From an uncultured virus (IMG/VR IMGVR_UViG_3300037070_004147) (taxonomy: Duplodnaviria > Heunggongvirae > Uroviricota > Caudoviricetes): a stretch of 64,000 nucleotides of DNA. The DNA is taken from the IMG/VR virus record IMGVR_UViG_3300037070_004147. One strand, 5' to 3'. Position numbers and translations under genes: made by a program. Shown here piece after piece: positions 9,087-62,771 of the stretch; position 1 is the stretch's first letter, and each line of letters starts with the position of its first letter. The notes below the pieces were generated by a model. It did no database searches, had not been told where the DNA came from, and was given only the letters and a program-made list of their open reading frames with translations.

Positions 9087-9087
9087 T

Positions 9088-9165: not shown

Positions 9166-9181
9166 GATGTTAGGGTGTTGG

Positions 9182-9257: not shown

Positions 9258-9320
9258 AGCCTTTAGGCTGTCAGCGTCGTAGTCGGTCGAGGTCGCCAGA
9301 GATGCATCGGTGGTCCCTTT

Positions 9321-9398
9321 TGGGAGCGGGGGCCGGATTTGAACCGGCGGCCTCCGGAATATGAATCCGACGAGCACTCCGGGCTGCTCCACCCCGCG
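9321..9398 (-). tRNA. tRNA-Met(CAT), initiator-like
   Basis: CGCGGGGTGGAGCAGC start and 1:72 mismatch as in tRNA-fMet; CAT anticodon. Confidence 0.9.
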
Positions 9399-10914: not shown

Positions 10915-10963
10915 TGGTTGGCTCCTTTAAGAATACCCCCGAGGCGTATGCGTTCCGACTGCC

Positions 10964-11293
10964 TCAAAGGATTGCCTGAAAGGCTTCGGGAACGTCATCT
11001 TCGTGCATGAAGCCTGCCTGGACCGCCACTCGATAAGGCTGGGCTTCTGCGTCTTCGTCAGCCCAAGCATCCGAGCCATAAACCGGATAGAATTCGGTCC
11101 ACTTGTCGGGATCGATTGAACCGAAAGCCCGAACCTTTGCGGCGAGATAATCCGTAGCAGCTTCGTCAACGAACAGGCCGCGAAGAATATAGCGTGCTCC
11201 GCGGGAGGTTTCGGCGACGATATCAAACTGATGCGGGGTTCCGTCCAGGGACGGGCCAGCCTCTACGGTTGCGATGGCGATACGGTCGGTCAT
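10964..11293 (-). CDS. hypothetical protein
   Basis: 109 aa, preceded by promoter/RBS cassette. Confidence 0.75.
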   Translation of the reverse strand: MTDRIAIATVEAGPSLDGTPHQFDIVAETSRGARYILRGLFVDEAATDYLAAKVRAFGSIDPDKWTEFYPVYGSDAWADEDAEAQPYRVAVQAGFMHEDDVPEAFQAIL

Positions 11294-11348
11294 GTCGGTT
11301 GGCTCCTTCTGTGATTCTCACCCTAGCGCCACACGTGGCGAATGTCAA
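11294..11348 (-). promoter_or_regulatory. promoter-operator-RBS cassette, copy 1
   Basis: TTGACA-N17(GCCACGTGTGGC)-TAGGGT..AGAAGGAGCCAACC. Confidence 0.85.
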
Positions 11349-12937
11349 TCCTCTCTTGGTTTTATTTCGTGGACCCCCGTAACCTCAATCAGGTTCACTT
11401 TGGCGCGGGTAACGGCGACGTAGGCCAGATTGATTTCCTGCGCCTTCTGCCACGCCTGCTTGGCGAACTTGCTGGGCATCAGGGTGTCGCGGCCCAGAAG
11501 GTAAACGTTGTTCCACTCCAGTCCCTTGGCGCGGTGGCAGGAGGCCAGCGTGATGCAGCCAGCCTTGCTGGCGCCGTCGGTGAAGAGGTTGCGGATCATC
11601 TCCACCATGTCCTCGACGCGGGACATCCCCTGTGCGCGGGCGCGGTCCATAATCACGAAGAGGGTTTCAACCTGATCGTTGAGCCGGTCCGCTTTGTCCT
11701 CCTGCCCGCGGTCCATGAACTTGGCGACTTCGCGGTCGAGGTACTCGTTGAGCTTGTTCTCGAGGGCGACGAGCGTCTTGACGGAGTTCCAACGGTTGCA
11801 GAGGCGGATGAGGCCGTCACCGATAGCGCGCCCCTCCATGCGGGCCGGAAGTCCCATGCGGATCATCTTGAACGCCAGCGACACGAGGTACTTGTTGTTC
11901 CGGCAGAGGATGGCGGTTTCGGCGTACTCACCTTTCGGTGTGTGAGGGAGGTCGGCCAGGAAGTCCCCAAAGTCTTCGGTGGTCACCGAGCCCTCGATGG
12001 CGTCCTCATGCGACTCGATGTGAGACACGATACGCTGAGCGTGGCGGATAACCGCTCGGGGGCAGCGGTAGGAAACCGACAGGGGCAGCCGGATAGCCCC
12101 ATGTTCGCGCCCCAGCTGGTCCAGGGCGTCGTTGTCCGCGCCGGTGAAGCCGTAGATCGCCTGATGCGGATCGCCCACCGCGATGAGGCGGCCACCCGGT
12201 GCCAGCAGTGCCCCAGCGAGCGCACGACGAGTCGGGTTGGTGTCCTGCGCCTCATCAACGATCACCCAGTCGTTCTGGGCAAGCTTCAAGCGGTGGACGA
12301 GAGGCAGGTAGACCATGTCGTCAAAATCGATGACGTCGATCATGTTGTTCGACCGAGCCAATGCCGTGCGCGCGAAGGCGACCGCCGTCGTCAGGTTTGC
12401 CTCTTCCGGAAGCTGGGCGTCCAGGTCGAAGTGCGAGATCATGTCGTACCAAGCGTCCACGTCGTCGATTTTGGTGACGGCGCCGATGCCACGGTTCTTG
12501 GCCATGGAGATGATCTTCAGGATCGTTCCCTCCATGTCGCGTAGATCGTAGCGAGTGACCTTATCGGCCGCTTCACGCTCGAGGATCAGGTTGTCGAGGA
12601 TCTTCTGGACTTTCTTCTGGTCGGTCTGGACTCGCTTGCTGACCATGCGAAGAGCCTGGAAACCGGCCGCATGGAAGGTAGAGAACGACACGTCAGGACG
12701 ACCGGCAAGCTCCGACATCTTCGCTGCGCGAGCCTTCATCTCCTCGGCGTTCTTTTTGTTGTAGACGCCCATCCAGACGCTGCCCGGCATGCGCGAGATA
12801 CCCTGGAGGCAGGTGGTGGTCTTGCCGGCCCCAGCGACAGCTTCGAGCAGCGCGGATCCGGATCCGTTCTCGATGAAATCGAAGAACGCCTGCTGTGCGG
12901 CGGAGGGGATGAACGGCTTGGCGGTGGCGGTGGTCAT
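11345..12937 (-). CDS. UvrD/Rep-like SF1 helicase
   Basis: AVAGAGKTT, VDEAQD, GDPHQAIYGF, SYRCP, HRAKGLEW, YVAVTRA; start set at the ATG after the cassette. Confidence 0.93.
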   Translation of the reverse strand: MTTATAKPFIPSAAQQAFFDFIENGSGSALLEAVAGAGKTTTCLQGISRMPGSVWMGVYNKKNAEEMKARAAKMSELAGRPDVSFSTFHAAGFQALRMVSKRVQTDQKKVQKILDNLILEREAADKVTRYDLRDMEGTILKIISMAKNRGIGAVTKIDDVDAWYDMISHFDLDAQLPEEANLTTAVAFARTALARSNNMIDVIDFDDMVYLPLVHRLKLAQNDWVIVDEAQDTNPTRRALAGALLAPGGRLIAVGDPHQAIYGFTGADNDALDQLGREHGAIRLPLSVSYRCPRAVIRHAQRIVSHIESHEDAIEGSVTTEDFGDFLADLPHTPKGEYAETAILCRNNKYLVSLAFKMIRMGLPARMEGRAIGDGLIRLCNRWNSVKTLVALENKLNEYLDREVAKFMDRGQEDKADRLNDQVETLFVIMDRARAQGMSRVEDMVEMIRNLFTDGASKAGCITLASCHRAKGLEWNNVYLLGRDTLMPSKFAKQAWQKAQEINLAYVAVTRAKVNLIEVTGVHEIKPRED

Positions 12938-12991
12938 CGGGTTGGCTCCTTCTGATGATTCGACCTTACAGCCACGCGTGGCATATGTCAA
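12938..12991 (-). promoter_or_regulatory. promoter-operator-RBS cassette, copy 2
   Basis: TTGACA-N17(GCCACGCGTGGC)-TAAGGT..AGAAGGAGCCAACCC. Confidence 0.88.
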
Positions 12992-12994
12992 CGA

Positions 12995-13534
12995 TTATCC
13001 TCCCAGAGATTTGCGCGTCAATCCAAGCTCTCGGCGAAGCATAGCGTATGCCGCACGCCAGCCATCGCCGTGTGGTGTTTTCCAGTCCAGTCGCTCTTGC
13101 CATGCAGGCACATCAAAATTTAGTCTGGGGTGCATTGCTTGGCGCCGCACTTTGCGCCCTATCGTGTATTGGATCGCGTGGGCAGTCTCGTGCGCGATGG
13201 CTGCCTTGAGCGGCGCCCACTCGTCTGCGGCGGCGACGAATGAGCCTATAGTCGGATCATCCGCGATACGGGCATATTCGGTAAATCCCCATCCTAACGT
13301 GACACGGCATGCGCTCGGGGTGTAGCGTCCTGGCGCGATTGAGATACGGGGCTTGACCGGCTCGTCTCGCCAATGGGAGCTATAAACTCCGCCCCAGCAG
13401 CGATAGCCGTTCCAGTTTATCGTCACGTCAACGGCCCAATCGGACGGCAACGCCATCTCAGATGTTTTCCGCTTGGCGATCCTGGCGCAAGCTTTCGCCG
13501 TGCTTCGCACGATCTTTTCGATATCGTCTTTCAT
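12995..13534 (-). CDS. SprT-like zinc metalloprotease
   Basis: AHETAH (HExxH) plus downstream HGDGW motif. Confidence 0.75.
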   Translation of the reverse strand: MKDDIEKIVRSTAKACARIAKRKTSEMALPSDWAVDVTINWNGYRCWGGVYSSHWRDEPVKPRISIAPGRYTPSACRVTLGWGFTEYARIADDPTIGSFVAAADEWAPLKAAIAHETAHAIQYTIGRKVRRQAMHPRLNFDVPAWQERLDWKTPHGDGWRAAYAMLRRELGLTRKSLGG

Positions 13535-13588
13535 CGGGTTGGCTCCTTCTGATGATTCGACCTTAACGCCACGTGTGGCCGCAGTCAA
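13535..13588 (-). promoter_or_regulatory. promoter-operator-RBS cassette, copy 3
   Basis: TTGACT-N17(GCCACACGTGGC)-TAAGGT..AGAAGGAGCCAACCC. Confidence 0.88.
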
Positions 13589-13596
13589 TCAGGAAT

Positions 13597-19425: not shown

Positions 19426-22302
19426 ATGGCTTTCGGCTTTCTAGTACTACCCCTCGCTAGCTCTGCCGAGATCACCGGCAATGCGACCATCAACGAGGCG
19501 GCTGACACTTCCACCTCGGCTGCCGTTCTCGCGCTTTCCGCAACCGCCTCCATAACTGAGGCGGCGGATACCTCTACGACCGCGGCGACGCTGGCTATCA
19601 GCGCCACGGCCACAATCACCGAGGCGGCTGATACCTCCACCGCAGCTGGTGCCCTGGCGATTGTCGGCACCGATACGACCACCGAAGCGGCCGACACGCT
19701 CACCTCTGCGGCCGCACTGGCCATCTCGGCAACGGCTTCGATTAACGAAGCCGCCGATACCTCCACGTCTGCGGCGGTGCTCGCTCTATCCGCTACAGCC
19801 TCCATCACCGAGGCTGCCGACACATCCACCGCATTGATGACTCGCGATCTGTTCGCGACCGCGAGCGTCGACGAGACCGCAGACACCTCGACCAGCGCCG
19901 CGGCTTTGGCGATCTCTGCTACGGCTAGCATCAACGAGACAGCGGACACTCTGACTTCGGTTGCTGCGCTCGCCTTGGCCGGTACGGAAACTAGCACTGA
20001 GCAAGCCGACACCCTTAGCGCGCTGATGACGCGCGATCTGTTCGGCACGTTCACAGCGACCGAAGCTGCCGACACGCTGACGTCTGCGTCTATTCTCGAG
20101 GTGCTGGCGACGCTGACGGCGACTGAGGTTGCCGATACCCTCACCAGCGCCGCTGGCGTGGTCGTTGGCGGCTCGCTGGATAAGACCGAAGCTGCCGATA
20201 CGCTCACGTCCGCCAGCGTTCTAGCTATCAGCAGCGCATCAACGATTTCCGAGACCGCCGACACTCTGACGTCGGCGGCGGCGCTCGCCATTGTCGGCCT
20301 CGGTGGCGGCAACGAGCAAGCCGATACCATCTCGGCTGCTGCCACGCTGGCGATATCTGCAACGGCTTCGATTAACGAAGCGGCGGATACCGCCACGACG
20401 TTGATGACGCGCGATCTGTTCGCGACCGCGAGCATCAACGAAACGGCAGACACCCTCACCAGCGCCGCTGGCGTGGCGGTGGGCGGCTCTCTTGATGCGA
20501 CTGAGGTAGCGGACACCCTAACAGGAGTCGGCGCTCTAGCGCTTTCTGGTGCGGTCGACGCAACAGAACTGGCCGACGATGGATCCAGCACCGGCGAACT
20601 GGCGATTATCTCTAGCTCGTCGCCAAACGAGACTGCCGACACCCTAGACGCTGCGGCGGCTCACGATCCGTTCGGCGATGTGAGTGCCACTGAGGCGGCA
20701 GATACGCTGGACTCGGAAGGCGCGTCTGTCATCTCCGGCAGCGCCGATATCTACGAGACGCCTGACACCATCACTACCACGACGATCCTTCTGATCGTCG
20801 GCACGGCCGACTCTACCGAAATAGCAGATACAGTAGATGCCGTTGGCGGCAACACCGGCGAAGGCGTCGTCATCGCGACAGAGGTAGCGGATGATGTCGT
20901 CGCGGCCGGCGGCATTCCGATCTTTGCGCTGTTTAATGAATCGGAAGCTGCCGACACCTTGAGCGGCCTGGGGCTGTTCGATCTGTTCGGCACGGCGGAT
21001 CTCACCGAAGCCGCCGACACCAGCGACTCGGCGGCGGTGCTGGATATCACCGCGACCGCGGATATCAACGAGACTGCTGACACTTCAGACGCCACGGGCT
21101 CTATCGACATCGTTGCGTCTATAGAGGTGACGGAAGCGGCTGACACGCTGGATGCCCTAGCCGGCGTCTTCGTTTCCGCCGAGCTTGAGGCCACCGAAGT
21201 CGCAGACACGATGTCTGCTGACAGCTTCCTGACAACGAATGGCTACGTCGACGCCACGGAGGTTGCGGACGACTGCGTTTCTGACGGTATCATCCCGCTC
21301 AACGGCGGGGCCGAGATGGCCGAAAATAGCGATAGCCTTGACGCTTCTGGGCAACTCGCCATTGTGTCGTCGGGGGTCGATGCCACCGAGGTGGCCGATA
21401 GCCTCGACGCTGCAGCCATACTGGAGATCCTAGGAAATGTTGAGTTTACGGAGTCTGCCGACTCGAACCAAGCGTCTGGCGAAGTTGCGATTGCGGGTTC
21501 GATCGCAATTGATGAAGCCGGAGACACCCTCGAATCATCCTCGGTCCTGCTGGTTACTGCCAGCCTGGATTCGACGGAAAGCCCGGACGGAATCTCTAGC
21601 GCGGCGGGCCTCGGCATCATCGCGCTCCTTACCGCAACCGACGTTTCGGATAGTTTCGAATCAACCGGCGCACTTGCGCTCACCGGGTCTGTCGCCGGAA
21701 CTGAGGCTGGTGACACTCTAAGCTCTGACGCCGTCAGGGGCCGCGAAGCCGATGTAAACGCCACTGAGGCTGCGGACACTGCGTCTGCAGCTGGCGCATT
21801 GGCAATTGTCAGTAGCGTGTCAGTAGCCGAGGTTGCTGACACGACTTCCGCGGCTGGCATCCTGGCGATTTCCGGCACGTTGTCGGCGACCGAGACAGCC
21901 GACACTGTAATCACTGATTCCCTACTGGGTCGCGCCGCTTCTGCCTCGTTGTCTGAGGCTGCCGATACGCTTCAGGCTGCCGGGGAGACGCCCATCGTGG
22001 CGACTCTCAATAGGAACGAGACAGCCGATACCGTTACCTCCGTTCTTCTCCCCGGAAGAACCGCAGTATCGACTATCACGGAAAGGCGAGATACTATCTC
22101 TGCCGCCGGACTTAATCCGGAAACGCCGATTATCATTCCGCAGGGGCGGCGAGTTAATCTGGTTGGCGTTCTTAGAGATAGGATTCACATGGTCGGCAGG
22201 ATCCACGGCGGGCCTAATGCGGGGAATGTTGTGGAGTTCCCGAGAATATCTCTGGTCGGCAGGACGATGACGGGTATTAGGCTGATTGGGAGAATGAAGT
22301 GA
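19426..22302 (+). CDS. long 21-aa EAADT repeat protein (putative virion filament)
   Basis: About 40 repeats; paralog of 3077..4669; GGGAGG RBS. Confidence 0.85.
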   Translation: MAFGFLVLPLASSAEITGNATINEAADTSTSAAVLALSATASITEAADTSTTAATLAISATATITEAADTSTAAGALAIVGTDTTTEAADTLTSAAALAISATASINEAADTSTSAAVLALSATASITEAADTSTALMTRDLFATASVDETADTSTSAAALAISATASINETADTLTSVAALALAGTETSTEQADTLSALMTRDLFGTFTATEAADTLTSASILEVLATLTATEVADTLTSAAGVVVGGSLDKTEAADTLTSASVLAISSASTISETADTLTSAAALAIVGLGGGNEQADTISAAATLAISATASINEAADTATTLMTRDLFATASINETADTLTSAAGVAVGGSLDATEVADTLTGVGALALSGAVDATELADDGSSTGELAIISSSSPNETADTLDAAAAHDPFGDVSATEAADTLDSEGASVISGSADIYETPDTITTTTILLIVGTADSTEIADTVDAVGGNTGEGVVIATEVADDVVAAGGIPIFALFNESEAADTLSGLGLFDLFGTADLTEAADTSDSAAVLDITATADINETADTSDATGSIDIVASIEVTEAADTLDALAGVFVSAELEATEVADTMSADSFLTTNGYVDATEVADDCVSDGIIPLNGGAEMAENSDSLDASGQLAIVSSGVDATEVADSLDAAAILEILGNVEFTESADSNQASGEVAIAGSIAIDEAGDTLESSSVLLVTASLDSTESPDGISSAAGLGIIALLTATDVSDSFESTGALALTGSVAGTEAGDTLSSDAVRGREADVNATEAADTASAAGALAIVSSVSVAEVADTTSAAGILAISGTLSATETADTVITDSLLGRAASASLSEAADTLQAAGETPIVATLNRNETADTVTSVLLPGRTAVSTITERRDTISAAGLNPETPIIIPQGRRVNLVGVLRDRIHMVGRIHGGPNAGNVVEFPRISLVGRTMTGIRLIGRMK

Positions 22303-23885: not shown

Positions 23886-25615
23886 ACATCAAGCGCCTCC
23901 CAAAGCCGGTTAAGAAGCTGCAGCAGATTGACGGCCGCGGTGGCGGCTGGATCAATGTCATCCGCGAGTCGTTTCCTGGCGCCTTTCAGCACAACGTGAC
24001 GCTGGAAGTTCCGAATATAACTTCATTCGGGGCAGTGTATGCATGCACAACCCTGATTGCATCAGATATTGCCAAGATGAGGATCCGTCTTGTTCAGATG
24101 GATGGCGACGGAATTTGGCAGGAGACTGAAAATCCTGCTTACTCTCCCGTGCTTCGTAAGCCAAACCATTATCAGACCCGCATTGAATTCATCAGCCGTT
24201 GGGTTTTGTCCAAGCTGCTTTACGGCAATGCGTACATCCTGAAAGAGCGCGACACTCGTGGCGTCGTAACCGCGATGTACGTCCTTAATCCTCAGTGGGT
24301 CAAGGTGTTAGTTACTCAGCAAGGCGACGTGTACTACGAAGTTAACAAGGACGAACTTTCAAGTCAGTATTCAGAGAATGCTACTATTCCGGCTAGGAAT
24401 ATCATTCACGATAAGATGAATACCTTATTCCACCCGCTGGTTGGGGTGTCTCCGATCTTTGCCTGCGGCTTGGCCGCGGTGCAGGGGATGCGGATCCAGA
24501 ATAACTCCGCTGGCTTCTTTGCCAACGGGGCTCGCCCCAGCGGCGTTCTCTCGGCTCCGGACGAGATTGGCGATGAGACTGCGGCTCGACTCAAGACGTA
24601 CTGGGAAGAGCAATTCAACGGGCAGAATGCCGGTAAGATTGCTGTGCTTGGTGACGGCCTCAAGTACGAGCCCATGATGATGACGTCGGCGGATGCTCAG
24701 GTGATTGAGCAGCTGCGCTGGACGTCTGAGAATGTTTGCAGTGCCTTCCATGTCCCGGCGCACATGATCGGCGTGGGCCCGACGGAGAGCAATAACAACG
24801 TAGAAACTCGCCTGCAGATGTACTACTCGCAGTGCTTGCAGATTCACGTTGAGTCGATTGAGCTTCTGCTGGACGAGGCGCTAGGTCTCGCCCCGGCCAC
24901 CGATGCCTCTCGGCCGCTCGGCACAGAGTTCGATCTCGACGCTCTGCTTCGGATGGACACTGCTTCGCTGATCAAGGCGGAGGCTGAAGCGGTCGGTGCC
25001 GGTATCAAGACTCCGAACGAGGCTCGCTATCGTCTGGGCTTACCGCCGATTTCTGGCGGTGAGAGCGCGTATCTCCAGCAGCAGAACTTTAGCCTGGAAG
25101 CGTTGGCCAAGCGCGACGCTCAAGACGATCCGTTCGCTCCCGCTACAACCCCGGCCGCTGAGGCGCCCATTGCGCTGCCGGCCCCGGATCCGAAGCCGGC
25201 TGATGAAGCGAGGCAGATCACTGACATGGTCACGGCGCTTCGCGAGTCCATGCCGCGGGAGATCGATCCATCCGAGATCGTCGAGGGTGTGGTCGAGCGC
25301 GTCTCCACCCCGTTCGACAGCTTCTCTTCGCAGCTAGAAGACATGCGCCAGAAGTACGCCGAGCGCGAGGCTGCAAGGCTGGAGGCGGATGCTCTTGCCA
25401 GAGAAGCGCTCGAGGCTGCGCGTAGCGAGACGGAGCGGCTCGCCAGCGCCATCGAAGAGACCAACAGCATCGAAGCAGCCCGGCTCGCTCGTGAGGCTGC
25501 GGAAGCGGCTGAGCGGCTCGCCGCGGAGCAAGCCGATGCTGAGGATAAATCGGAAAGTCAGAAGCTGGCCGAAGCGCTGCGGCTGAAGTTCTTGGAGGAA
25601 GTCGATGGCGCTTGA
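23867..25615 (+). CDS. HK97-family portal protein with C-terminal extension
   Basis: AVYACTTLIASDIA, GNAY, GVSPI, FFANGARPSG, TPNEAR. Confidence 0.95.
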   Translation: MRILGLDIKRLPKPVKKLQQIDGRGGGWINVIRESFPGAFQHNVTLEVPNITSFGAVYACTTLIASDIAKMRIRLVQMDGDGIWQETENPAYSPVLRKPNHYQTRIEFISRWVLSKLLYGNAYILKERDTRGVVTAMYVLNPQWVKVLVTQQGDVYYEVNKDELSSQYSENATIPARNIIHDKMNTLFHPLVGVSPIFACGLAAVQGMRIQNNSAGFFANGARPSGVLSAPDEIGDETAARLKTYWEEQFNGQNAGKIAVLGDGLKYEPMMMTSADAQVIEQLRWTSENVCSAFHVPAHMIGVGPTESNNNVETRLQMYYSQCLQIHVESIELLLDEALGLAPATDASRPLGTEFDLDALLRMDTASLIKAEAEAVGAGIKTPNEARYRLGLPPISGGESAYLQQQNFSLEALAKRDAQDDPFAPATTPAAEAPIALPAPDPKPADEARQITDMVTALRESMPREIDPSEIVEGVVERVSTPFDSFSSQLEDMRQKYAEREAARLEADALAREALEAARSETERLASAIEETNSIEAARLAREAAEAAERLAAEQADAEDKSESQKLAEALRLKFLEEVDGA

Positions 25616-27431
25616 TGTTGATGTGATCGCAGACGCGCTGTTCGCGGGAACGACTAGACTTCTTGAGCGAAAGTTGGCTCCGGTGCTCGCGGCGAACGCG
25701 GCACTGCTAGAAGAGAATGAGCGACTTTCGCAGCGGCTCGCCCTCGTTGAGGGACGGGAAATCCCGGTGTTTGATCCTAGTGAAATCAACGACGAGTTAG
25801 GCCATGTGAAGCGGGTTCTAGAGTCGCTGGAAGTTGATAAGCGCATCGAGGAGCGGCTCACCGGCGTCACCAAGACACTTGAGGACGGCTTGGCTTCCAT
25901 TCCGCGGCCTGAGCCGCTGCCGGACATTGACGGCATGGTTGCCAAGGCCACTGAGGGGCTGCAGGAGCGGCTCAAGGGTGTCGAGGGTACCGTTTTGGGG
26001 CTACCGACAGTCGAGGCCATAGAGGCCGCCGTAGCGCCTCTGCGCGAGGCTGTGGATGCCGTTAAAGCGGTCGAGGTTCCTGACGTGACGGGCTTGGTCG
26101 AGGCTGAGGTGGCTAAGCAGCTAGCGCCGCAGCTGTGCCAACAGGTAGGCCCAGAGGATATCGCCGCAATCGTTGCGGCCGAGGTCGACAAGATCCCAGT
26201 TCCGCAGGATGGCAAGGACGCCGAACTGCCGGATATCGCTGCGATGATCGCTGCCGAGGTTGCGAAAATCCCCGCGCCCCAGGACGGCAAAGACGCAGAA
26301 CTCCCAGACATCGCGGCCATGGTTGCTGCCGAAGTTGCTAAGATTCCGGTGCCGGCTGACGGCAAGGACGCCGAGCTTCCGGATATCGCGGCGATGGTTG
26401 CGGCCGAGGTCGCTAAGATCCCCGCACCGGCTGACGGCAAGGACGCTGAGCTTCCCGACATTCCGGCGCTGATTAACGAGGCGGTCGCCCCGCTTGTCGC
26501 CGAGGCGGTTGCCCAGATTCAGCTACCGGAATTGCCGGATGTTAAGTCCATTGTCGCGGAAGAGGTTGCCAAGATCCCTGCGCCGGTCGATGGCAAGGAC
26601 GCTGAGCTTCCTGACATTCCAGCTTTAGTCGCTGAGGCGGTTGCCCAGATTCAGCTTCCGGAGTTGCCAGACGTCAAGTCTCTGGTCATGGAAGAGGTCG
26701 CTAAGATCCCCGCACCGGCTGACGGCAAGGACGCTGAGCTTCCCGACATTCCGGCGCTAGTTGCCGAAGCGGTTGCGCAGGTTCCGCTCCCTGAACTGCC
26801 TGACGTCAAGTCACTTGTCGCCGAAGAGGTGGCCAAGATCCCGCCCGCGCGCGATGGCAAGGATTACGACCCTGCGGTGCTTGACGAGCTTAAGTCTGGG
26901 ATTGAAGCTCGCTTTGCCGAGCTAGATGCCGATCACAAGCAGATCGGCGGAATCGTAGCCGGAGAAATCCGGAGCGCTCTAGACAGTCTCCGAAAGGAAG
27001 TGCCGCAGCTGGCGGCGCCGACGTTCCGTCTGAACGAAGACGGCGAACTCATCGCCAAGAATCAGAACGGCGAGACGTTCAATGTCGGCAAGGTCCGTGG
27101 CAATGACGGCCTGGGCCTGGATGACATCGAGGTTGATTACGACGGCGAACGGCGCATCAGCTTTAAGATGCGCGGAGCCGGCCGTGAGACAGAACCGCGC
27201 ACCTTCGTTCTGCCTATCTCGATTTACCGTGGTGTGTGGCAGCAGGACCAGACTTACGAGAAGGGTGACAACGTGACTTGGGCTGGCTCTATTTGGGTAG
27301 CTCAGACGGACACTGCGGCCAAGCCGGAAACCAATAGCGACTGGAAGCTGGCGGTTAAGCGCGGCCGCGACGGCAAGGATCGTGTAGCGCCTCCCACGCC
27401 CAGTGCGCCTACGCGAGGGGGTCGGCAATGA
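25605..27431 (+). CDS. portal-associated repeat protein
   Basis: Repeats VAAEVAKIPAPADGKDAELPDI; C-terminal YRGVW..GDNVTWAGSIW..AVKRGRDG. Confidence 0.8.
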   Translation: MALDVDVIADALFAGTTRLLERKLAPVLAANAALLEENERLSQRLALVEGREIPVFDPSEINDELGHVKRVLESLEVDKRIEERLTGVTKTLEDGLASIPRPEPLPDIDGMVAKATEGLQERLKGVEGTVLGLPTVEAIEAAVAPLREAVDAVKAVEVPDVTGLVEAEVAKQLAPQLCQQVGPEDIAAIVAAEVDKIPVPQDGKDAELPDIAAMIAAEVAKIPAPQDGKDAELPDIAAMVAAEVAKIPVPADGKDAELPDIAAMVAAEVAKIPAPADGKDAELPDIPALINEAVAPLVAEAVAQIQLPELPDVKSIVAEEVAKIPAPVDGKDAELPDIPALVAEAVAQIQLPELPDVKSLVMEEVAKIPAPADGKDAELPDIPALVAEAVAQVPLPELPDVKSLVAEEVAKIPPARDGKDYDPAVLDELKSGIEARFAELDADHKQIGGIVAGEIRSALDSLRKEVPQLAAPTFRLNEDGELIAKNQNGETFNVGKVRGNDGLGLDDIEVDYDGERRISFKMRGAGRETEPRTFVLPISIYRGVWQQDQTYEKGDNVTWAGSIWVAQTDTAAKPETNSDWKLAVKRGRDGKDRVAPPTPSAPTRGGRQ

Positions 27432-41728: not shown

Positions 41729-44092
41729 ATGGCCGTCCTTGCTACAGACCCCAGTACTTTCGCTGCCAGGGTTACCGCCGCCGCGTCTGGTGATACTCTT
41801 TCACTGGCTGGTGGGCAGTATGGAGTCAGGGGGCTTACGAAGGCGCTCAATAGCTGCACACTTAAAGCAGCAAATCCTAATGATCCCCCCATCTTTTGGG
41901 GAATTAGAATCGCCGGCAGCGAGCGAATGGGATATTTCAACTCCCTCGCCGGATCATCGCCGGGGTCGGTTAGCAACCTAACCCTTGATGGAATTCACTT
42001 TATCGCTCCCCGCGTGTTTAGCCTAAGCAAGGGCGCAAATACCAACGGCGCCTATGATCTGGCCGACGATTTAGGTCGGGGTTTGTCTTGGCGTATTGCT
42101 CCCGGTACTCCCGGATTTAGAACATACGATGCCCAGGACGCCTACATGATGGCGGTTGCCGGAGTGGGCAACAGTACCAACACCTTGATCCAAAACTGTT
42201 ATTTCAATGGATACGGTAGGGCTTTCTCCATTTCAGGCGGCAGCGGCTTCACGTTCCAGCAAAATACAACGATTGACCTTACGGAAGACTTTTTCTTCAT
42301 TGGCGGTGGTTCCAACATCACCATCCAGTGGAACCGGCAGATCCGTTCTCAGCCTGTTTCCATGCGGGACGCATATCTAGGGTGGGATTACGGCAAGAGC
42401 GTCGACCAAGTCCCGCCGCCGCACTCCGACTGGTGCCAGCTTTACGGTAAGACCACCAATTTCGTTTATCAATATAACGACATCTTCGATGACACCGAGC
42501 GGTGCCACCCGCTGTTGTGCAAGATTAGAGATGGCGGCCCCCAGGGCGGTCAGGTCATCCCGCAGAGTGGGTGGCATGTCGGCGTTAAGGTGATCAACAA
42601 CTACTGCGCTTCATCGCATGGGACGCAGCTGTGGGTGAGCCATAGCGTGGCGCCAATGATGTCTCGCAACAAGGGCATTAAGGTCGGCGGCTCTCCTAGC
42701 CTTCAGGTGTCGCAAGAAACGGTTGTGAATGCTACCGTCACCAACAACGTTGGCGCATCGCTTCACTTCGGACCCAACCCGGATTCCGCTCCGAATGATC
42801 CGGTGCCGGGATGGACTAAAAGCGGCAACCAGCAAACCAACGATATTAACGTGCTGCCTTCCGGCTGGGTGGAGGTCCGTCAAAGCAAGGTCAGCGGTGG
42901 CGCTCGCTTTGCCGGGCAGTATGGTAATTCTGGTGGGGTATCTCCGCCACCGCCTCCGCCGCCGCCCCCAACCAGCACGCCGATCTTCACCACCCTTCCA
43001 TTGCTTCGTCCGACTCCGACAGTGGTCACCGGGGGCAGGCTGACTGCTACGCCAGCGGTTGCGGATGGCGATCCAAATCCGACCACTTCCCATCGTTGGT
43101 TTAGGGGAGGGGTGCTGGACGCATCCATCACCGGAACGACTTATGACACGGTCACCGGTGATAACGGCGTGGATTTCACCTATCGCACTCGAGCCAATAA
43201 TGGCGTGGGCGGCAACGTGGACTCCGCGATTAGCAATACGGTTCGCGCACTGTCCCCGCCTCCGCCGCCACCGCCGGCCACGGCGCCATCATTCTTCACG
43301 GCTCCTGACTTGAACCCTAACGGCTCGGTTCTGGTTGGAGCAGTTATTACCGCTACGCAAGCTTCTGCCACCGGCGGTACTCCCATTACTCTTTCAAACA
43401 GGTGGTTCAGGGGCGGTATTTTAAACTCTGCCGTAACTGGATTAACCTACACGACAGGTACTCCCGATCTAGGGGCGGCGATCACTTACCGCACTCGCGC
43501 CAGCAATAGCGGAGGGACGATAGACTCCGCCCTGAGCGACGCTGTGATGGTTCTGTCTCCGCCGTCTCCGCCGCCTCCACCGCCACCACCGCCGCCGACC
43601 CTTCCGGATCCATTAACGTCTGGGCAGGTTGAGTTCCGCGAATTGGTCCCGGACCCGACGAAGCCGAATGATGCGAGGCGGACATTCACAATTACCGTTC
43701 CGGCGAGTTCTCCGGCTGCTGACGCCGTAGCGTTCCAGTGGAGCAGTGCGGCGGATGATGACGTCGGGCACCGCGCGATGGTAAAGCTCGACAATGTAGG
43801 GACTGACCGCGTCTGGAGGGCCCAAAGCAATTCGTCCACGTCTAACGCTCATCTCCGTTTCCCGGAGGGGACGTTCGACACGGTCCATCTTTATTACCAG
43901 TTGGCCGCGGGCGGTCAGTTCTCGCTAGCCTCGACCTACACCTTTACCGTGACTGTCCCGTTTGTCGGCGATCCCGATCCGGATCTGACACAAGTGATCG
44001 ATTTAGACTTCCTTCGCCGAGCCATCACGACAGAAGGGGACGCCTTCCAAATCGTGACTAAGGATCGCGGCGTAATCTGGACCAAGCCTTAA
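41729..44092 (+). CDS. beta-helix fibre/depolymerase with poly-Pro linkers and Ig-like repeats
   Basis: Beta-helix with PHSDWCQ; three Pro tracts; two RWFRGG..YRTRA repeats. Confidence 0.8.
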   Translation: MAVLATDPSTFAARVTAAASGDTLSLAGGQYGVRGLTKALNSCTLKAANPNDPPIFWGIRIAGSERMGYFNSLAGSSPGSVSNLTLDGIHFIAPRVFSLSKGANTNGAYDLADDLGRGLSWRIAPGTPGFRTYDAQDAYMMAVAGVGNSTNTLIQNCYFNGYGRAFSISGGSGFTFQQNTTIDLTEDFFFIGGGSNITIQWNRQIRSQPVSMRDAYLGWDYGKSVDQVPPPHSDWCQLYGKTTNFVYQYNDIFDDTERCHPLLCKIRDGGPQGGQVIPQSGWHVGVKVINNYCASSHGTQLWVSHSVAPMMSRNKGIKVGGSPSLQVSQETVVNATVTNNVGASLHFGPNPDSAPNDPVPGWTKSGNQQTNDINVLPSGWVEVRQSKVSGGARFAGQYGNSGGVSPPPPPPPPPTSTPIFTTLPLLRPTPTVVTGGRLTATPAVADGDPNPTTSHRWFRGGVLDASITGTTYDTVTGDNGVDFTYRTRANNGVGGNVDSAISNTVRALSPPPPPPPATAPSFFTAPDLNPNGSVLVGAVITATQASATGGTPITLSNRWFRGGILNSAVTGLTYTTGTPDLGAAITYRTRASNSGGTIDSALSDAVMVLSPPSPPPPPPPPPPTLPDPLTSGQVEFRELVPDPTKPNDARRTFTITVPASSPAADAVAFQWSSAADDDVGHRAMVKLDNVGTDRVWRAQSNSSTSNAHLRFPEGTFDTVHLYYQLAAGGQFSLASTYTFTVTVPFVGDPDPDLTQVIDLDFLRRAITTEGDAFQIVTKDRGVIWTKP

Positions 44093-44482: not shown

Positions 44483-47400
44483 ATGGCCACTATTAACGTC
44501 GCTGGAGATCGGACCGCGCTACTAGACGCGATCATGGACGCTTCGGTTAGCTCCGACGACGTTATCCGCGTCGGTCCAGGGGTTATCGCTGAGTTCGCTT
44601 GGCCTCGAGACTTGAGGCGGCCACTGACCCTGGCGCCACAGAACATTAGCAACCCGCCGACCATGCGCGGGATCATGTTCGGCAACCCCGGCAATCTGAA
44701 AAATAACTTTGCGCATCTCGGGAGTGCCCCTAAGGCCAGCACTATCCAGCAGTTGACCATCGATGGCCTTTATTTCGAGGCTCAGCGATTCACGACCGGC
44801 AAGGATGCCGGCGGGACCACTCGCAACATCACGGTCGGGGGCCGCGGATGGGGTTGGCGCGTCGCCGGCATGGCTCATCCCGCCGGTGCTTTGGGCAGCT
44901 ATTCCGAAAACAGCAACATGCGCGGGATTTGGACGTTAGACCAAGTCAACGGCATGACCATTAAGAACTGTACCCTTAATGGTTATGCTAATGCGGCAGT
45001 TTTCCAGGGCTCCAACGTTAGGATGTCCCATTGTACCTTCGAGGAAAATCACGAAGATATTATCAAATATACCAACTTCAATAACCTTATTCTTGAATGG
45101 ATTGAGGCGAGAGACTTCGCTCCCATCCCACAGCAGGTGGCTAACTGGTGGGGGTGGAACAACACTCAGTCGCCGCCGCATGCTGACTATCTGCAGATGC
45201 TGGGGTCCGGCTCCGGATTCACGTTTCGCTACTCCTCGCTGGTCGACACGTCTGGTCTGGTTCACGCCGGCCTGTGCCGCCCACCGGATGGCTACGGCAA
45301 GACGCCCAACGTTGTTTTCGACAACAATGAGTTTTATTGCAATAACACCAATGGCTTGGCCATCGGCGATGCAACTAACCTAACCGTCATTAAGCAGAAG
45401 ATCCACCGTCCGGACGGGGCTCCGATTTGGGGGCCGCAGGGCCCAGCCAATTCTGAGCCGGTCCTTCAGATTATGCCGACCAGCGGTGGCAACCTTAACC
45501 TTCACGACAACATGGCTCCCCGCCTCTGGGGCCTTGCCGAAAACGGTGCCGTCGCCACCAGAACCAACAGCCATACCAGCTTCCCCGCTGGCTTCCGCCA
45601 GATTCGCAAAACACAGGTTAGCTCTGGCGCAGAATATACTGGGGCGTACGGTGGCCCCGGAGACGTTGAGCCGCCGCCACCTCCGCCCCCGCCGCCCCCG
45701 CCGCCGCCACCGACACAGCCGTCATTTACCTCCACTCCGGCGGTTAGGCCGGTTGGGCCAGTTGCCGTCGGCACCACGCTTACGGCGACTCCTGCGGTCG
45801 CCATAGGCTCTGCGCCGCTTACGAACACCAATCAGTGGTTCCGAAACGATGTGGTGTTTCTGTTCGGGGCAGGCGTCCCCAACACCTACGTTACTGTTTT
45901 GGGCGATGCTGGAAAGCAAATCAGCTACCGGACGCATTCGGCAAACGCCTTCGGAACCACGGCCTCCGCGGAGAGCAACGCGGTCAACGTTCTGTCCCCG
46001 CCACCTCCACCGCCACCTTCTACCGCCCCTGTCTTTGTCACGACGCCAGAACTCGACCCTGAGGTGTCCGTCGTGTACGGCGCTGTCCTTGTGGCAACTC
46101 CGGCCTCGGCCAGCGGCAGCGCGCCGATAACCTATGCCAACCGCTGGTTTAAGGATAACGTTCTTAGCGCCGGAACGACTGGAGGCTCCTACACCACCGT
46201 CCTCGCGGACGTCGGCAAGACCATCAAGTACCAGACTCGGGCAACCAATGCGGCAGCTCCGAGCGGTGTCGATTCCAGCTTCAGCAACTCGGTTGCGATT
46301 CTGGCGCCTTCTCCGCCACCGCCGCCTCCGCCGCCTCCGCCACCGCCGCCGCCGCCGCCCCCGCCGCCACCGCCGGATACTCCGCCGGACACGCCGGTGA
46401 CTCTGGCAGCGGGGCAGGTAGCATTCTATGGACTTGCACCAGATCCGGATTCGCCAGAGACGGACCAGAGGCGAGCATTTCAAGTTTCAGTGCCGCAGCA
46501 TAAGACGTTGCGGTTTAGCGGTGGGAACGCGTCTATCGCCTCCGGCACCACGATTAACGATCAGACTTCCGGCGCGACAGCCGTCACCTCAGGCGTGCCT
46601 GTGGTGGAGAGCGGCAGCTACGGTGCAGGAACCGCAGCTGGTTATATCAACCTGACTAGCTGGACGGGTACCTGGGGAACTGGGAACAATATCCGAGTCG
46701 TCACCACCGTTCGCGGTGTGGTTACCAAGGTACCGGTTTTGTCTCCGGCTTACGGAGCCGCTGGGCTTAGGTGGCACTCTGCCGCCGAGACACTGCCGGG
46801 CCAAGCCAGGGCGATGTTTAAGCTCGATGCTCTCGGGCCGGCCGACGAGGAGATCTGGCAGGCAACGTCGAACGTGACTCAGGGCACCGTTGGTCAGGTA
46901 GTCCCGCATCTTCGTTATCCAGGCGAGTCGTTCGACGACGTTCAGATTCTTTATACGCTGGTCACCAATCCGGCGGTGCGGTCTGAGTTTACCGCAGTCG
47001 GACTGATCGCAGATATCGTTATCCCACCGGTTGGCGGCGGCGGAGAGACGTGGATCCCGAAGTGGGTCATTGAGTTCCCGTTGGTCCGCGGCCTCTACTT
47101 TGAGGGTGCGGTTCTGAAGGAGGTTCAATACCTCAATCAGGTGGCGTGGCGTAAGCCGGCTCCTGCGCTGGTGGGCTCCAACACGGTTGCTGATCGGTCG
47201 ATCTCGCAGCCGAATATTCCGTCTGTCTACGCCAACAACGACAGGTTGTTTGCCTTCGCGTACGGCACCGGCTCGACCCCGTTCATCAACCCGGTTGATG
47301 CGGGCTCGCTCTGGACTGAGGTCTATCCTAGCGCCACCCCCGGCGCGGCTAACCAAGTGTTCGCTCTGCTGATTGGCACCGCCACCAGCGGCTCCATGAC

Positions 47401-53708: not shown

Positions 53709-53783
53709 TGGCTCGGGGAGGTGGATTCGAACCACCGACACACAGCTTCAAAGGCTGCCGTTCTTCCGCTGAACTACCCCCGA
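53709..53783 (-). tRNA. tRNA-Gln(TTG)
   Basis: U1-A72, GCAGC CT TTG AA GCTGT, GTTCGAATC, G CCA. Confidence 0.92.
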
Positions 53784-55095: not shown

Positions 55096-55282
55096 TGAGG
55101 ATGCTCCTTAGGATTCTCTCTATCCAGTATTCCCAGATTAAGCCTAGCCCATATCCGACAAGGATCACCACGCCCACTAGCAGGAATAACTTGACGCACC
55201 GGGCCAGATATCGGCGATCGGGCGCGCGATAATCCAGCACATAGATCCTAGGCTTAGACTCCTTCGGCGGACGCCAACTCAT
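55085..55282 (-). CDS. small membrane protein
   Basis: ATGA-coupled, one TM. Confidence 0.55.
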   Translation of the reverse strand: MSWRPPKESKPRIYVLDYRAPDRRYLARCVKLFLLVGVVILVGYGLGLIWEYWIERILRSILIGN

Positions 55283-55473
55283 CGTCCCGGGCCCACTGCG
55301 CACGCCACAACTAGGCTATGAAGCCGCCTACCGTCAGGCGAGTCAAGGTCTGCGCTAATGATCTGAACGTGAGCACGCTCGCAGTCCAGTGCGGTAGGAT
55401 CTCCGGTCGGCTCCGGAATGCTGGGGGCGCAGGCCGCAGCCCATAGCGCGCTACCGAGTGCCATCCATCGCAT
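55279..55473 (-). CDS. small putative lipoprotein
   Basis: MRWMALGSALWAAAC lipobox-like start. Confidence 0.5.
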   Translation of the reverse strand: MRWMALGSALWAAACAPSIPEPTGDPTALDCERAHVQIISADLDSPDGRRLHSLVVACAVGPGR

Positions 55474-55507
55474 ATCCGTAGCCTCTGTCGTTTCCCCTTG
55501 GGTGGTC

Positions 55508-55554
55508 GGGAGGCCGGATGCAGGAAGGAGCCAACCCACCACACCCAGCCTCCC
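55508..55554 (-). ncRNA. putative anti-Shine-Dalgarno hairpin sRNA
   Basis: 13-bp stem with two G-U pairs on the - strand; 21-nt loop contains GGGUUGGCUCCUUCCU, complementary to the shared early-gene RBS. Confidence 0.65.
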
Positions 55555-55657
55555 TCCCGTCCTGCACCTTCTACCTTCCTACCTTTGGGAGGAATATCGG
55601 AAGGGAGGCCGCAGACACCCTCAGCCGCACCCGCAGCGGCAACGGCTGAGGAACAAT

Positions 55658-56224
55658 TTAACTCCCGGAGACGACGATTGTCCCCGGCTGATTTAGCAGG
55701 GCGCCGCCAGCGGGATCCACAAGCTGGACGTGCCCGTTCTTGACCGCCCAAGCCAAATCCGCAGCCGTGCCGCCGAACGCTCGGTAGTCCTCGTAAGACA
55801 TCCTTCGCTCCGGAGTCGACCAGAGCAACTCCAGGGACTTGAAGCCGGGCACGCTGGCCAGATGCGGGTTCTTGTCCGTGACAGCAACCAGATACTTACC
55901 GGCAGCCAGGGCAGGGCGTCCGCGTCGCTTCATCACACGGACCACGCCCGGTTCGGAAGGGTCGGGGGGTTCGGTCGAAGTGATGGCCCCGATCTCGTCG
56001 TGCAGCATCTCCGCGGCACCCTCGAGATCGTGCATGAGGATCTGCTGCCAGACTTCAGCTGCACGCTCGCGACCGATCTTGCCGACTAACGCCAGATTGA
56101 ACCGCCTCACGGCGCTAGGCAGATCCACGGCCTCGACGTCGGCACGCGTGCCGGTGATGTCTTCCGTCAGTTCCGCGACTTCCTCCTTGGAAAGCCGCAT
56201 CGCGTCGAGGTCGAATTCAGACAT
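55658..56224 (-). CDS. putative DNA-binding protein
   Basis: KRRGRP AT-hook-like motif; small C-terminal domain YEDY..GG..DLAW..G; RBS AAGGAGCCA. Confidence 0.55.
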   Translation of the reverse strand: MSEFDLDAMRLSKEEVAELTEDITGTRADVEAVDLPSAVRRFNLALVGKIGRERAAEVWQQILMHDLEGAAEMLHDEIGAITSTEPPDPSEPGVVRVMKRRGRPALAAGKYLVAVTDKNPHLASVPGFKSLELLWSTPERRMSYEDYRAFGGTAADLAWAVKNGHVQLVDPAGGALLNQPGTIVVSGS

Positions 56225-56270: not shown

Positions 56271-56486
56271 CTAGCGCAATAACCCTTCGCGTATCTTATC
56301 GTTCAGCCAAGCCACGAAAGCGTGAGGTCCAACAATCTCTTCAGGGACATCGATATCTAGATCGTCCAGGGCAATGACGAAGTCGGCGGCCGCGTCATTG
56401 CCGCCATCAACGTAACCTACGTCATAGTCGGTATCCAGTGCGCGAGCCGGAGACGGTTGGTAGTTTTTGGCCTTGCCCTCCATCAC
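56271..56486 (-). CDS. hypothetical protein
   Basis: Coupled ORF. Confidence 0.55.
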   Translation of the reverse strand: MMEGKAKNYQPSPARALDTDYDVGYVDGGNDAAADFVIALDDLDIDVPEEIVGPHAFVAWLNDKIREGLLR

Positions 56487-56752
56487 CGAAGCACCAGCAT
56501 CGTGCAGAAGATACCCATACCCAGCATGGCCATGCCCATGCCGAACAGACAGAGGTCACGATTGAAGACCATGGCGCGGAGCATCAGATTCTCCGCACTC
56601 ACCGTGTTGAATTTATCAACGAGGATTTCGCCCTGATGATCCATCTCGTTCATCTTGTCCAGGGCCATATTGTATACTGCCTGGGCAACCTCGTTGTCCT
56701 CGAAGATTTCCGGCTCCGGCTCACGGGGGTAAAGCTGGTGAACGGTTCCCAT
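56483..56752 (-). CDS. small membrane protein
   Basis: C-terminal TM; RBS AGGAAGGAGCC. Confidence 0.65.
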   Translation of the reverse strand: MGTVHQLYPREPEPEIFEDNEVAQAVYNMALDKMNEMDHQGEILVDKFNTVSAENLMLRAMVFNRDLCLFGMGMAMLGMGIFCTMLVLR

Positions 56753-56926
56753 TTAAAGGCTCCTTCCTTGATTCTCGGAATTCAAGTCCTCTTCGCGAAG
56801 GTCCCACCAGCGTTCGTCGCCGGCCGGCTCCTGATCCTCTGGCTCGTGCTCGTCGACATATGAGCGGGCCGCCGCATCAAGAACAGCACGATACCAGCCA
56901 TCGCAGACGCGCCCGCGATCGGTCAT
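56753..56926 (-). CDS. acidic hypothetical protein (57 aa, not in ORF track)
   Basis: MTDRGRVC..NQGRSL fills the gap, ATGA-coupled. Confidence 0.55.
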   Translation of the reverse strand: MTDRGRVCDGWYRAVLDAAARSYVDEHEPEDQEPAGDERWWDLREEDLNSENQGRSL

Positions 56927-57108
56927 TCTGCGTCCTCCTCAAGGTAGAACGGATCCAGCCGCTTGGCCACCCGCTGGAAAAGCCATTCGTCAACTGAGCC
57001 TTTGCGTGGCGGACGAGGACGGCCGATTTGCAGGTAGCTTAGGTTCGGGTCCGGCGACCGGGGATGCGTTTCAACAAGGCCGCGGAGTAGGCGATTTAGG
57101 AATTTCAT
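56923..57108 (-). CDS. hypothetical protein (61 aa)
   Basis: MKFLNRLL after cassette RBS. Confidence 0.65.
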   Translation of the reverse strand: MKFLNRLLRGLVETHPRSPDPNLSYLQIGRPRPPRKGSVDEWLFQRVAKRLDPFYLEEDAE

Positions 57109-57160
57109 CGTTTGGCTCCTTCTATGCGACTCATAATACGCCTCAATCCACGCGTGGCAA
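57109..57160 (-). promoter_or_regulatory. promoter-operator-RBS cassette, copy 4 (variant)
   Basis: TTGCCA-N16-TATTAT, CCACGCGTGG overlapping -35, AGAAGGAGCCAAAC. Confidence 0.75.
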
Positions 57161-59653: not shown

Positions 59654-59921
59654 GCGGCGTCTCCCAGGTCACGACGGCAGGGGCGGCGTACCAGCCTTCC
59701 TGCTTGCAGTCTTGGATTTCATCTCCGTTGTAGAACATCGCCTTGCCCCAGGCTTCGTACTCGTCCTTGGCCCTGCCGGCCCAAAACACCCCCCGCTCGT
59801 TCACGACCACCCAGATAGGGACGGTGGTTTGAACGGACGGCGTGCGGTCTCGTTGGTGCCAGTAGCGGTTGAATTCGTTTAAGTTTGATTCGATTGAGCC
59901 AACATCAGGAGTCTCAGACAT
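59643..59921 (-). CDS. hypothetical protein
   Basis: 92-aa ORF. Confidence 0.55.
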   Translation of the reverse strand: MSETPDVGSIESNLNEFNRYWHQRDRTPSVQTTVPIWVVVNERGVFWAGRAKDEYEAWGKAMFYNGDEIQDCKQEGWYAAPAVVTWETPRGE

Positions 59922-60866: not shown

Positions 60867-60897
60867 CTCTTTGGCTCCTTTTTAAGTTCCCGGTCAT

Positions 60898-62328: not shown

Positions 62329-62528
62329 GCGGCATTGCCGGCGGCTTCGCCGAGGGGCGTGTCTTGGAATGCCTGCGCCACCGTAACTAGCTCCTTCCAG
62401 ATCATCATAACAGCGTTTTGATTCTGGTCGAGCAGGCTGCCGCCTTCCATGACGTCACGGAACTGATCGGCCACCATGCCGCCATGCTTATGCGAGATGA
62501 CGGCGTTGAGGATGTCGGTGTATGTCAT
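62313..62528 (-). CDS. hypothetical protein (71 aa)
   Basis: ATG directly after cassette RBS. Confidence 0.7.
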   Translation of the reverse strand: MTYTDILNAVISHKHGGMVADQFRDVMEGGSLLDQNQNAVMMIWKELVTVAQAFQDTPLGEAAGNAAWRFE

Positions 62529-62582
62529 CAGTTTGGCTCCTTCTGATGACTCCAACCTACCGCCACGCGTTGCCTACGTCAA
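62529..62582 (-). promoter_or_regulatory. promoter-operator-RBS cassette, copy 5
   Basis: TTGACG-N17(GCAACGCGTGGC)-TAGGTT..AGAAGGAGCCAAAC. Confidence 0.85.
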
Positions 62583-62771
62583 CGATTCGTTCGCCTTCAC
62601 CAGCATATAATTGGCGCGGGCCTCGAGGGTGTCGGCGGCATGCCGCCACGCCATGATCTGACCCTTGCGACCAGAGGCGTCCTCAGCCTCAGCCTCATCG
62701 GCCCTAACCCGCATCTGGGATGCCATCTCAAACAGCTTAGCTACAGCCGCTGGCGATGATGTGGCGATCAT
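62574..62771 (-). CDS. hypothetical protein
   Basis: 65-aa ORF. Confidence 0.5.
   Translation of the reverse strand: MIATSSPAAVAKLFEMASQMRVRADEAEAEDASGRKGQIMAWRHAADTLEARANYMLVKANESLT

Follow-up and report, generated by a model that had tools for sequence, protein, structure and literature searches.

A hairpin within an early operon of an uncultured soil phage displays the complement of the phage's own early-gene leader tag

RESULTS

We observe that the most stable hairpin in the genome of an uncultured soil phage carries in its apex the exact complement of a 14-nt tag found immediately before the start codons of early genes of the same phage, and that this complementarity between apex and early-gene leader is confirmed, at the level of sequence, to be beyond chance. 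The best explanation, to which we assign a probability of about 0.45, is that the hairpin is an operon-embedded anti-leader RNA that would meter the tagged early genes. The window (the whole 64-kb stretch of DNA that was analyzed) belongs to an uncultured soil tailed phage with recognizable portal, tape-measure, tail-fibre, and helicase genes. The closest deposited relatives of its portal protein come from phages of Gram-negative hosts, at about 46 to 52% amino acid identity, and a megablast comparison with deposited phages returned no match to the window. Two contigs of the viral collection represent the same phage, and the stretch is present, in whole or in part, in seven soil-metagenome runs.

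Genes on the + strand occupy most of 13.8 to 52.4 kb and are structural, and those on the − strand occupy 9.4 to 13.6 kb and 52.6 to 64 kb and are small, mostly orphan, and of early type. All five tRNA genes lie on the − strand among these early genes, with Trp, Pro, Thr, and Met clustered at 9013-9398 and Gln alone at 53709-53783. The + strand carries several repeat families: two large open reading frames (ORFs; 3077-4669 and 19426-22302) are made of about 21 copies of a common 63-nt (21-aa) unit, the ORF after the portal gene (25605-27431) has internal tandem repeats of 75 nt and 132 nt (two families), and two long ORFs of the tail region contain 9-nt-periodic, CCG/CCA-rich repeat runs (42937-43615 and 45667-46408; three families).

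A strand-specific hairpin with an anti-leader apex

The hairpin and its parts are as follows.

55508..55554, − strand: hairpin of 47 nt, with a 13-bp outer stem that includes two G-U pairs and with 5 predicted inner pairs
55529..55534, − strand: predicted open apical loop UUGGCU, with an unpaired probability of 0.99 to 1.00 for the six bases
55524..55537, − strand: anti-leader that complements GAAGGAGCCAACCC exactly; at this site, the only inverted copy, the motif is in + strand sense

Read on the − strand, positions 55508-55554 are GGGAGGCUGGGUG / UGGUGGGUUGGCUCCUUCCUG / CAUCCGGCCUCCC and fold at −33.9 kcal/mol (z −5.4), with none of 200 shuffles folding as well. The + strand folds more weakly (−20.2 kcal/mol, z −2.8), because the two G-U pairs of the − strand turn into C-A on the + strand. 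Among 31,976 windows of 50 nt taken from both strands, the hairpin ranks first (−35.3 versus a mean of −12.1, standard deviation 4.3). The first-pass annotation of this DNA had claimed a − strand hairpin with a 13-bp stem and strand-fixing G-U pairs, and we find its sequence and coordinates to be correct and the − strand to be favored by the fold. It had also claimed a 21-nt loop antisense to early-gene ribosome-binding sites (RBSs). The anti-leader complementarity of that loop stands, but its full openness does not, as the predicted fold adds 5 pairs and leaves unpaired only the six contiguous bases UUGGCU and three single bases; 8 of the 14 anti-leader bases are predicted to be paired inside the hairpin. 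The open loop UUGGCU is complementary to AGCCAA, which is the private part of the tag and not the generic Shine-Dalgarno (SD) sequence.

The tag and its single inverted copy

The exact 14-mer GAAGGAGCCAACCC occurs three times in the window (at 12939 and 13536 on the − strand and once, inverted, in the hairpin) against 0.00 expected from 100 shuffles, and the base-composition expectation for one inverted copy is 3.4e-4. Of the two − strand copies, the one at 12939 stands directly before the helicase ATG and the one at 13536 directly before that of a 179-aa gene. When up to 3 mismatches are allowed, the 7 matches found are at chance level (6.4 expected), and the signal therefore resides in the exact and near-exact copies. 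The longest matches to the loop's complement lie at 13536 and 12939 (14 nt each), followed by those at 11297 (13 nt), 10916 (12 nt), 62533, 57112, and 56758 (11 nt each), and 60871 (10 nt); two further matches, at 56228 and 62390, span 9 nt. All eight matches of at least 10 nt outside the hairpin are − strand RBSs that lie 1 to 6 nt before an ATG, and no + strand gene start in the window has a loop-complement match of at least 9 nt.

The motif AAGGAGCC has 12 copies on the − strand, of which 10 belong to RBSs and lie 1 to 9 nt before an ATG; its single + strand copy is the hairpin itself. AAGGAG is followed by CC at 12 of 28 − strand sites versus 1 of 16 + strand sites (0 of 15 + strand sites outside the hairpin). 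By these counts the tag is class-specific to the − strand early genes. In the hairpin, similarity to the leader cassette described below ends at the tag borders, and the tag sits in the apex. To our knowledge, GCCAACCC would not pair with the 16S tail. Each match includes some generic anti-SD sequence that would fit any AAGGAG site.

Several earlier claims about these matches are borne out. The pairing lengths first given (14, 14, 13, and 12 nt plus shorter RBS matches) agree with the lengths above, the hairpin is indeed opposite in orientation to every RBS copy, and the absence of a + strand start after the motif holds in that the first ATG, GTG, or TTG is a TTG 48 nt downstream. The helicase label of one target gene is secure (PHROG 1967, E 3e-105), and the label "SprT" given to 12995-13534 finds no support in Pfam or PHROGs.

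Tagged leaders as ends of a promoter-operator cassette

The RBS shared by these genes is the 3' end of a 64-nt cassette that is present in four copies and one variant and forms one repeat family. Its order is TTGAC(A), 17 nt containing the palindrome GCCACGCGTGGC, TAnnnT (TAAGGT, TAGGGT, or TAGGTT), about 10 nt, the 14-nt tag, 1 to 3 nt, and ATG, the palindrome being 12 bp long and located within the promoter spacer. The cassettes and the internal RBSs with longer tag matches are listed below.

12933..12996, − strand: cassette of the helicase gene, with TTGACA, 17 nt containing GCCACGCGTGGC, TAAGGT, a short leader with the exact 14-nt tag, and ATG
13530..13593, − strand: cassette of the 179-aa gene, with the exact 14-nt tag
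11290..11353, − strand: cassette of the 109-aa gene, tag 13/14
62524..62587, − strand: cassette of a 71-aa gene, tag 12/14 (11 contiguous)
57106..57160, − strand: variant cassette at the head of the hairpin operon, with TTGCCA, 16 nt, and TATTAT; tag 12/14
10915..10928, − strand: internal RBS with tag and without cassette, 12 contiguous nt
60871..60880, − strand: internal RBS with tag, 10 nt
56758..56768, − strand: internal RBS with tag in the hairpin's own operon, 11 nt

Shorter versions of the tag are found at internal RBSs at 10915, 60871, 58711, 56765, and 56236. From the spacing of its elements, we infer that the cassette combines a sigma-70-type promoter, whose spacer would contain an operator, with a 5' untranslated region (UTR) of about 20 nt; by the same −35/−10 spacing, the target of the hairpin would be nearly the entire short 5' UTR, adjoining the predicted 5' end. 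The identity among the best targets is owed to cassette duplication as well as to selection. The tagged RBSs had been described as a "barcoded SD" shared by about ten genes. A private tag that extends beyond the SD does exist, but it is the end of a duplicated promoter-operator-leader cassette and not a stand-alone SD, and the number of targets resolves into roughly five cassette leaders and five partial RBS matches.

Four other viral contigs show the same promoter-operator design with a different common leader, GAAGGAGAGACGAG, and an extra upstream half-site. They have almost no proteins in common with the window, and no inverted leader copy was found within these 8- to 18-kb fragments. The recurrence of the cassette across such distant phages suggests, from its sequence, a common repressor specificity. 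A search of genome contigs with the cassette pattern returned one hit only, apparently a chance match in a metagenome-assembled genome.

The operon around the hairpin

The hairpin lies in the following − strand neighborhood.

55658..56224, − strand: upstream gene of 188 aa, with RBS AAGGAGCCA and its stop at 55658
55477..55657, − strand: structured intergenic spacer of 181 nt that contains, besides the tag-mirroring hairpin, a first hairpin at 55619-55651 and a purine/pyrimidine hairpin
55279..55476, − strand: downstream gene of 65 aa, with a signal-peptide and lipobox-like (AAAC) N-terminus; its start is 31 nt past the hairpin

The location is intergenic, as had been claimed, in the 181-nt gap between the 188-aa and 65-aa genes. 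A 211-nt stretch over the spacer folds with a z score of −3.1, and the spacer contains three CCUCC motifs. For the 188-aa protein, a protein search gave one homologue, 86% identical and located on a 1.5-kb contig; Pfam and PHROGs returned nothing, and the ESM Atlas gave sub-threshold hints of a C-terminal winged helix (residues about 103-174). The 65-aa ORF has no family hit; we infer its lipobox from the N-terminal sequence, and it may be an accessory, exclusion-type gene. Two − strand ORFs over the spacer (146 aa and 87 aa) were considered as coding sequences and rejected, as they overlap better-supported genes and as variant contigs from two runs carry a 1-nt deletion at 55584, which makes it unlikely that the spacer is coding.

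Between 55657 and 55555, no promoter of the sigma-70-like type, which was the type covered, was found by eye or with a scan tool. On both strands the stem lacks a trailing U tract, with GACCACCC as the − strand tail and TCCCGTCC as the + strand tail, so that of the two parts of an intrinsic terminator the stem is present and the U tract absent. The two marks of a stand-alone small RNA (sRNA) gene, its own promoter and its own terminator, are thus both missing, and a discrete sRNA gene is not indicated; any action of the hairpin would therefore take place within the operon RNA or after processing. The earlier proposal of a trans-acting sRNA is partly supported: the hairpin, its − strand preference, and the tag complement are sustained and the estimated energetics are favorable, but a promoter and terminator of its own were not found.

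Pairing energetics

Freeing all 14 anti-leader bases is predicted to cost 6.2 kcal/mol. Duplexes between the hairpin and its three best targets are calculated at about −30 to −32 kcal/mol, with target opening costs of 2 to 7 kcal/mol, and the estimated net pairing is about −19 to −22 kcal/mol for these three targets and about −5 to −16 kcal/mol at the weaker sites, where net energy is the sum of duplex and opening energies and takes no account of the strain that a long helix would meet in a closed loop. We used duplex and opening energies because RNAcofold, which gave 0 to −8 kcal/mol, cannot represent loop-to-linear pairing. A 14-bp helix in a 21-nt loop is topologically strained, and this counts against the anti-leader reading. 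As UUGGCU complements the private part of the tag, tagged leaders would be favored over ordinary RBSs.

Strain variation and the search for relatives

A variant contig from one of the soil runs differs from the window at 12 positions over 55497-55759, and 9 of these differences lie at or beyond 55657. The intergenic part (55497-55656) has at most 3 substitutions and one deletion in 160 nt, whereas the adjacent gene has 80 differences over 632 nt (Fisher P = 9e-6). This contrast fits a spacer under constraint, although a mosaic junction where the gene ends would give the same picture. A variant contig from the same run joins 56280 to 56493, so that 212 nt with a 71-aa ORF (56271-56486) are absent, which is gene presence/absence variation between strains.

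Beyond the phage's own contigs, we found no relatives carrying the hairpin in viral, metagenome, or genome contigs. The 188-aa protein matched 2 loci in viral contigs (its own and one 19-residue match) and was confirmed in 0 of 107 candidate stretches from metagenome contigs and 0 of 67 from genome contigs. In viral contigs, both the stem pattern with a free loop and the loop 19-mer retrieved only the phage's own contig, and searches with the 14-mer and a 16-mer retrieved chance matches and the phage's own contigs; in metagenome contigs, an 18-mer occurred at 20 loci, none of which was a hairpin on inspection. Helicase relatives were located at 34 loci (24 to 46% identity), 30 of them without a repeated 11-mer tag by the criterion applied and 4 with repeats of another kind. 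The first-pass annotation had proposed an Rfam search, and this places the hairpin in no family: over the window only the five tRNAs reach the gathering score, with nothing credible in the hairpin region.

An inverted tag in Cluster K phages

The closest precedent for the layout is found in the Cluster K mycobacteriophages, where the start-associated sequence (SAS) is a 13-nt tag, GGGATAGGAGCCC, located 3 to 7 bp before the start codons of 11 to 19 non-structural genes (PMC3203893). According to the same account, SAS conservation exceeds what an SD needs, the tags are accompanied by a single inverted copy in K1 phages, and the partner, "either RNA or protein," was left undetermined by the authors (PMC3203893). 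A subset of the genes is preceded by the extended element (ESAS) of 46 to 47 bp, with SigA-like hexamers and an inverted repeat (PMC11373665). The role of SAS was still called unknown in 2024 (PMC11373665) and in 2025, in a text in which neither "antisense" nor "hairpin" occurs (PMC12699233).

In phage Anaya, we find 16 SAS copies on the + strand and one inverted copy inside a 385-nt gap. On the transcribed strand, a two-part hairpin presents this inverted SAS as its 10-nt loop, CCUCCUAUCC; the z score of this hairpin is only −1.6 in its GC-rich context. The site of the Cluster K inverted-SAS hairpin is JF704106, about 59849-59899, and an ORF is annotated over it in some records. In an alignment of 13 Cluster K phages picked across the identity range of 150 hits, 94% of cells in the stems are paired and 3 pairs are changed on both sides, and the anti-SAS loop is kept in 8/13 phages, degenerate in 2/13, and replaced by unrelated sequence or deleted in 3/13. 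The layout is thus shared with an unrelated lineage, which speaks for the anti-leader reading, but since the Cluster K hairpin persists with unrelated loops, its function there does not need an anti-tag loop.

DISCUSSION

Candidate mechanism and alternatives

As an anti-leader RNA, the hairpin would be made within the early − strand operon, with transcription starting from the variant cassette's promoter (about 57160), and would base-pair with the short 5' leaders and RBSs that bear the private tag AAGGAGCCAA(CCC). The open loop UUGGCU would nucleate on AGCCAA of the tag, after which pairing could extend to at most 14 nt, with the five weak inner pairs being opened at a cost of about 6 kcal/mol. 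Such pairing would cover the SD and nearly all of the ~20-nt 5' UTR of the helicase, 179-aa, and 109-aa genes, with weaker pairing at five to seven other early RBSs, and translation of the tagged class would be lowered or shut off as the operon RNA accumulates.

The alternative that survives best, although we consider it rather doubtful, is that the hairpin is a structural operon signal (an RNase III-type processing site, an mRNA stabilizer, a terminator or attenuator without a U tract, or an insulator) and that its loop match is functionless, for instance an inverted-cassette scrap left by recombination when the downstream gene was acquired. An intra-operon intergenic stem of about 19 bp with internal mismatches, adjoining the hairpin at 55619-55651, would suit such a signal, as would a downstream 65-aa gene that resembles an added accessory gene and the lack of any promoter or terminator marking a separate sRNA. 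The Cluster K phages strengthen this alternative, as some of them keep the well-paired hairpin with its double-sided pair changes but no anti-tag loop; how exact the match is, and where it is placed, weakens it. It leaves unexplained why an exact 14-mer, expected at 3e-4, sits in the apex of the most stable hairpin and why the match ends at the tag borders; moreover, the inverted copy is as intact as the best two copies, while three other cassettes differ at 1 to 2 positions, and a U tract is absent on both strands.

That a protein of the phage or its host reads the 14-bp tag as double-stranded DNA, as another regulator alongside the binder of GCCACGCGTGGC and irrespective of orientation, seems improbable. 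In favor of it, four or five operator-bearing promoters have the tag at about +5 to +18, an asymmetric DNA site may occur in either orientation, and the ESAS repeats of Cluster K are thought to be protein sites (PMC3203893, PMC11373665). Against this stand the partial tags at promoter-less internal RBSs, always 1 to 9 nt before the start codon, which indicate a role in RNA or translation, and the G-U pairs, which give strand specificity at the RNA level; nor would a DNA site explain the position in a hairpin apex. Slimmer still is the chance that the + strand is the functional one, as the relic leader of a lost + strand gene or as an antisense or read-through + strand RNA whose loop would present a leader mimic, a decoy for any binder of the tag: the motif is in sense orientation there, the weaker + strand hairpin leaves it more open, and a GGGAGG-N4-ATG at 55508-55520 opens a 43-aa ORF, but that ORF is of low complexity and without support, no start codon lies within 48 nt past the motif, the + strand upstream shows nothing promoter-like, neither a promoter nor an operator of the cassette type adjoins, the neighboring genes and a tRNA gene are all on the − strand, and a relic should decay, yet the motif is intact at 14/14. 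Both of these readings are less likely than the anti-leader RNA and the structural operon signal.

If the anti-leader reading is true, one short RNA would set the translation of an entire gene class, as a phage counterpart of the protein translational repressors and as a compact, programmable regulatory part. Private RBS tags on phage early genes, in the form of the Cluster K SAS, have been without explanation since 2011. We raise tentatively, and consider on balance unlikely, the broader idea that SAS-type tags have their missing trans-factor in the lone inverted copy and that this circuit evolved separately in Cluster K1 mycobacteriophages and in the present soil phage of Gram-negative type; a separate origin would account for the different tag sequence retained by each phage. 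If the anti-leader reading is false, the window still holds an ESAS/SAS-like promoter-operator-leader cassette outside the actinobacteriophages.

Comparison with known systems

The R sites of T7 are intergenic RNase III processing hairpins of a phage early operon. The window hairpin resembles them as a long imperfect hairpin between early-operon cistrons, with cleavage being putative, and we know of no RNase III processing hairpin that mirrors the leaders of other genes. Loops with C/U-rich anti-SD sequence are found in the sRNAs RsaE and RNAIII. The CI RNA of P4 is a c4-like phage RNA, and c4 itself shares an operon with its target and is freed from the transcript by processing.

With the cuckoo/CcsR sRNAs, the hairpin shares a CU-rich anti-SD sequence in hairpin loops (PMC4615179); sRNAs of this type are chromosomal, stand-alone, and aimed at generic SDs, whereas here the exposed bases match the private extension of the SD. 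The c4 antisense RNA of P1/P7 displays in its loops complements of sequences around the RBS (PMC12197685; Rfam RF01695), and the window hairpin would be like it in being a phage RNA with short loop complements of the RBS region. Unlike the window hairpin, c4 controls, in the account cited, one operon (icd/ant) for immunity and not a tagged class of about ten genes, and the c4 model RF01695 gives no match at the gathering score, nor at an E value up to 10 within 55200-55900. DicF of the Qin prophage is an sRNA encoded between genes of a prophage operon, which is processed and blocks translation by RBS pairing (PMC12197685). Its targets in that account are host mRNAs (ftsZ and others), unlike those proposed here, and it has no sequence or Rfam similarity to the hairpin.

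The likeness to SAS and ESAS concerns the design as a whole. The window has an asymmetric tag of 13 to 14 nt with an AGGAGCC core, placed in one orientation a few nucleotides before many non-structural starts and conserved past the SD; a subset of its tagged genes is preceded by an element of ~46 to 50 bp with −35/−10 hexamers and an inverted repeat; and, as in K1 phages, there is one inverted tag copy away from gene starts, which in Anaya also lies in a hairpin loop. The two tags are different in sequence (GAAGGAGCCAACCC versus GGGATAGGAGCCC), and so are the operators, the phage lineages, and probably the hosts; unlike the window, Cluster K phages outside K1 carry SAS tags but no anti-SAS loop. 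SAS membership is defined by at most 2 mismatches to GGGATAGGAGCCC (PMC12699233), and the window tag has more, with only AGGAGCC in common by eye. Judged on sequence, the window cassette and tag are an analogue of SAS/ESAS and not a member, and homology is not indicated.

The first-pass annotation had not recognized the hairpin as a described system. This holds for the RNA circuit, as the literature searched yielded, by title and among the matches listed, no phage RNA aimed at a tagged early-gene class, and the passages on SAS in the three Cluster K papers do not connect the inverted copy to an RNA (PMC3203893, PMC11373665, PMC12699233). It does not hold for the layout, for which SAS with its single inverted copy is a precedent. 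By design, the element is closest to SAS/ESAS, and by the mechanism proposed for it, to c4 and DicF.
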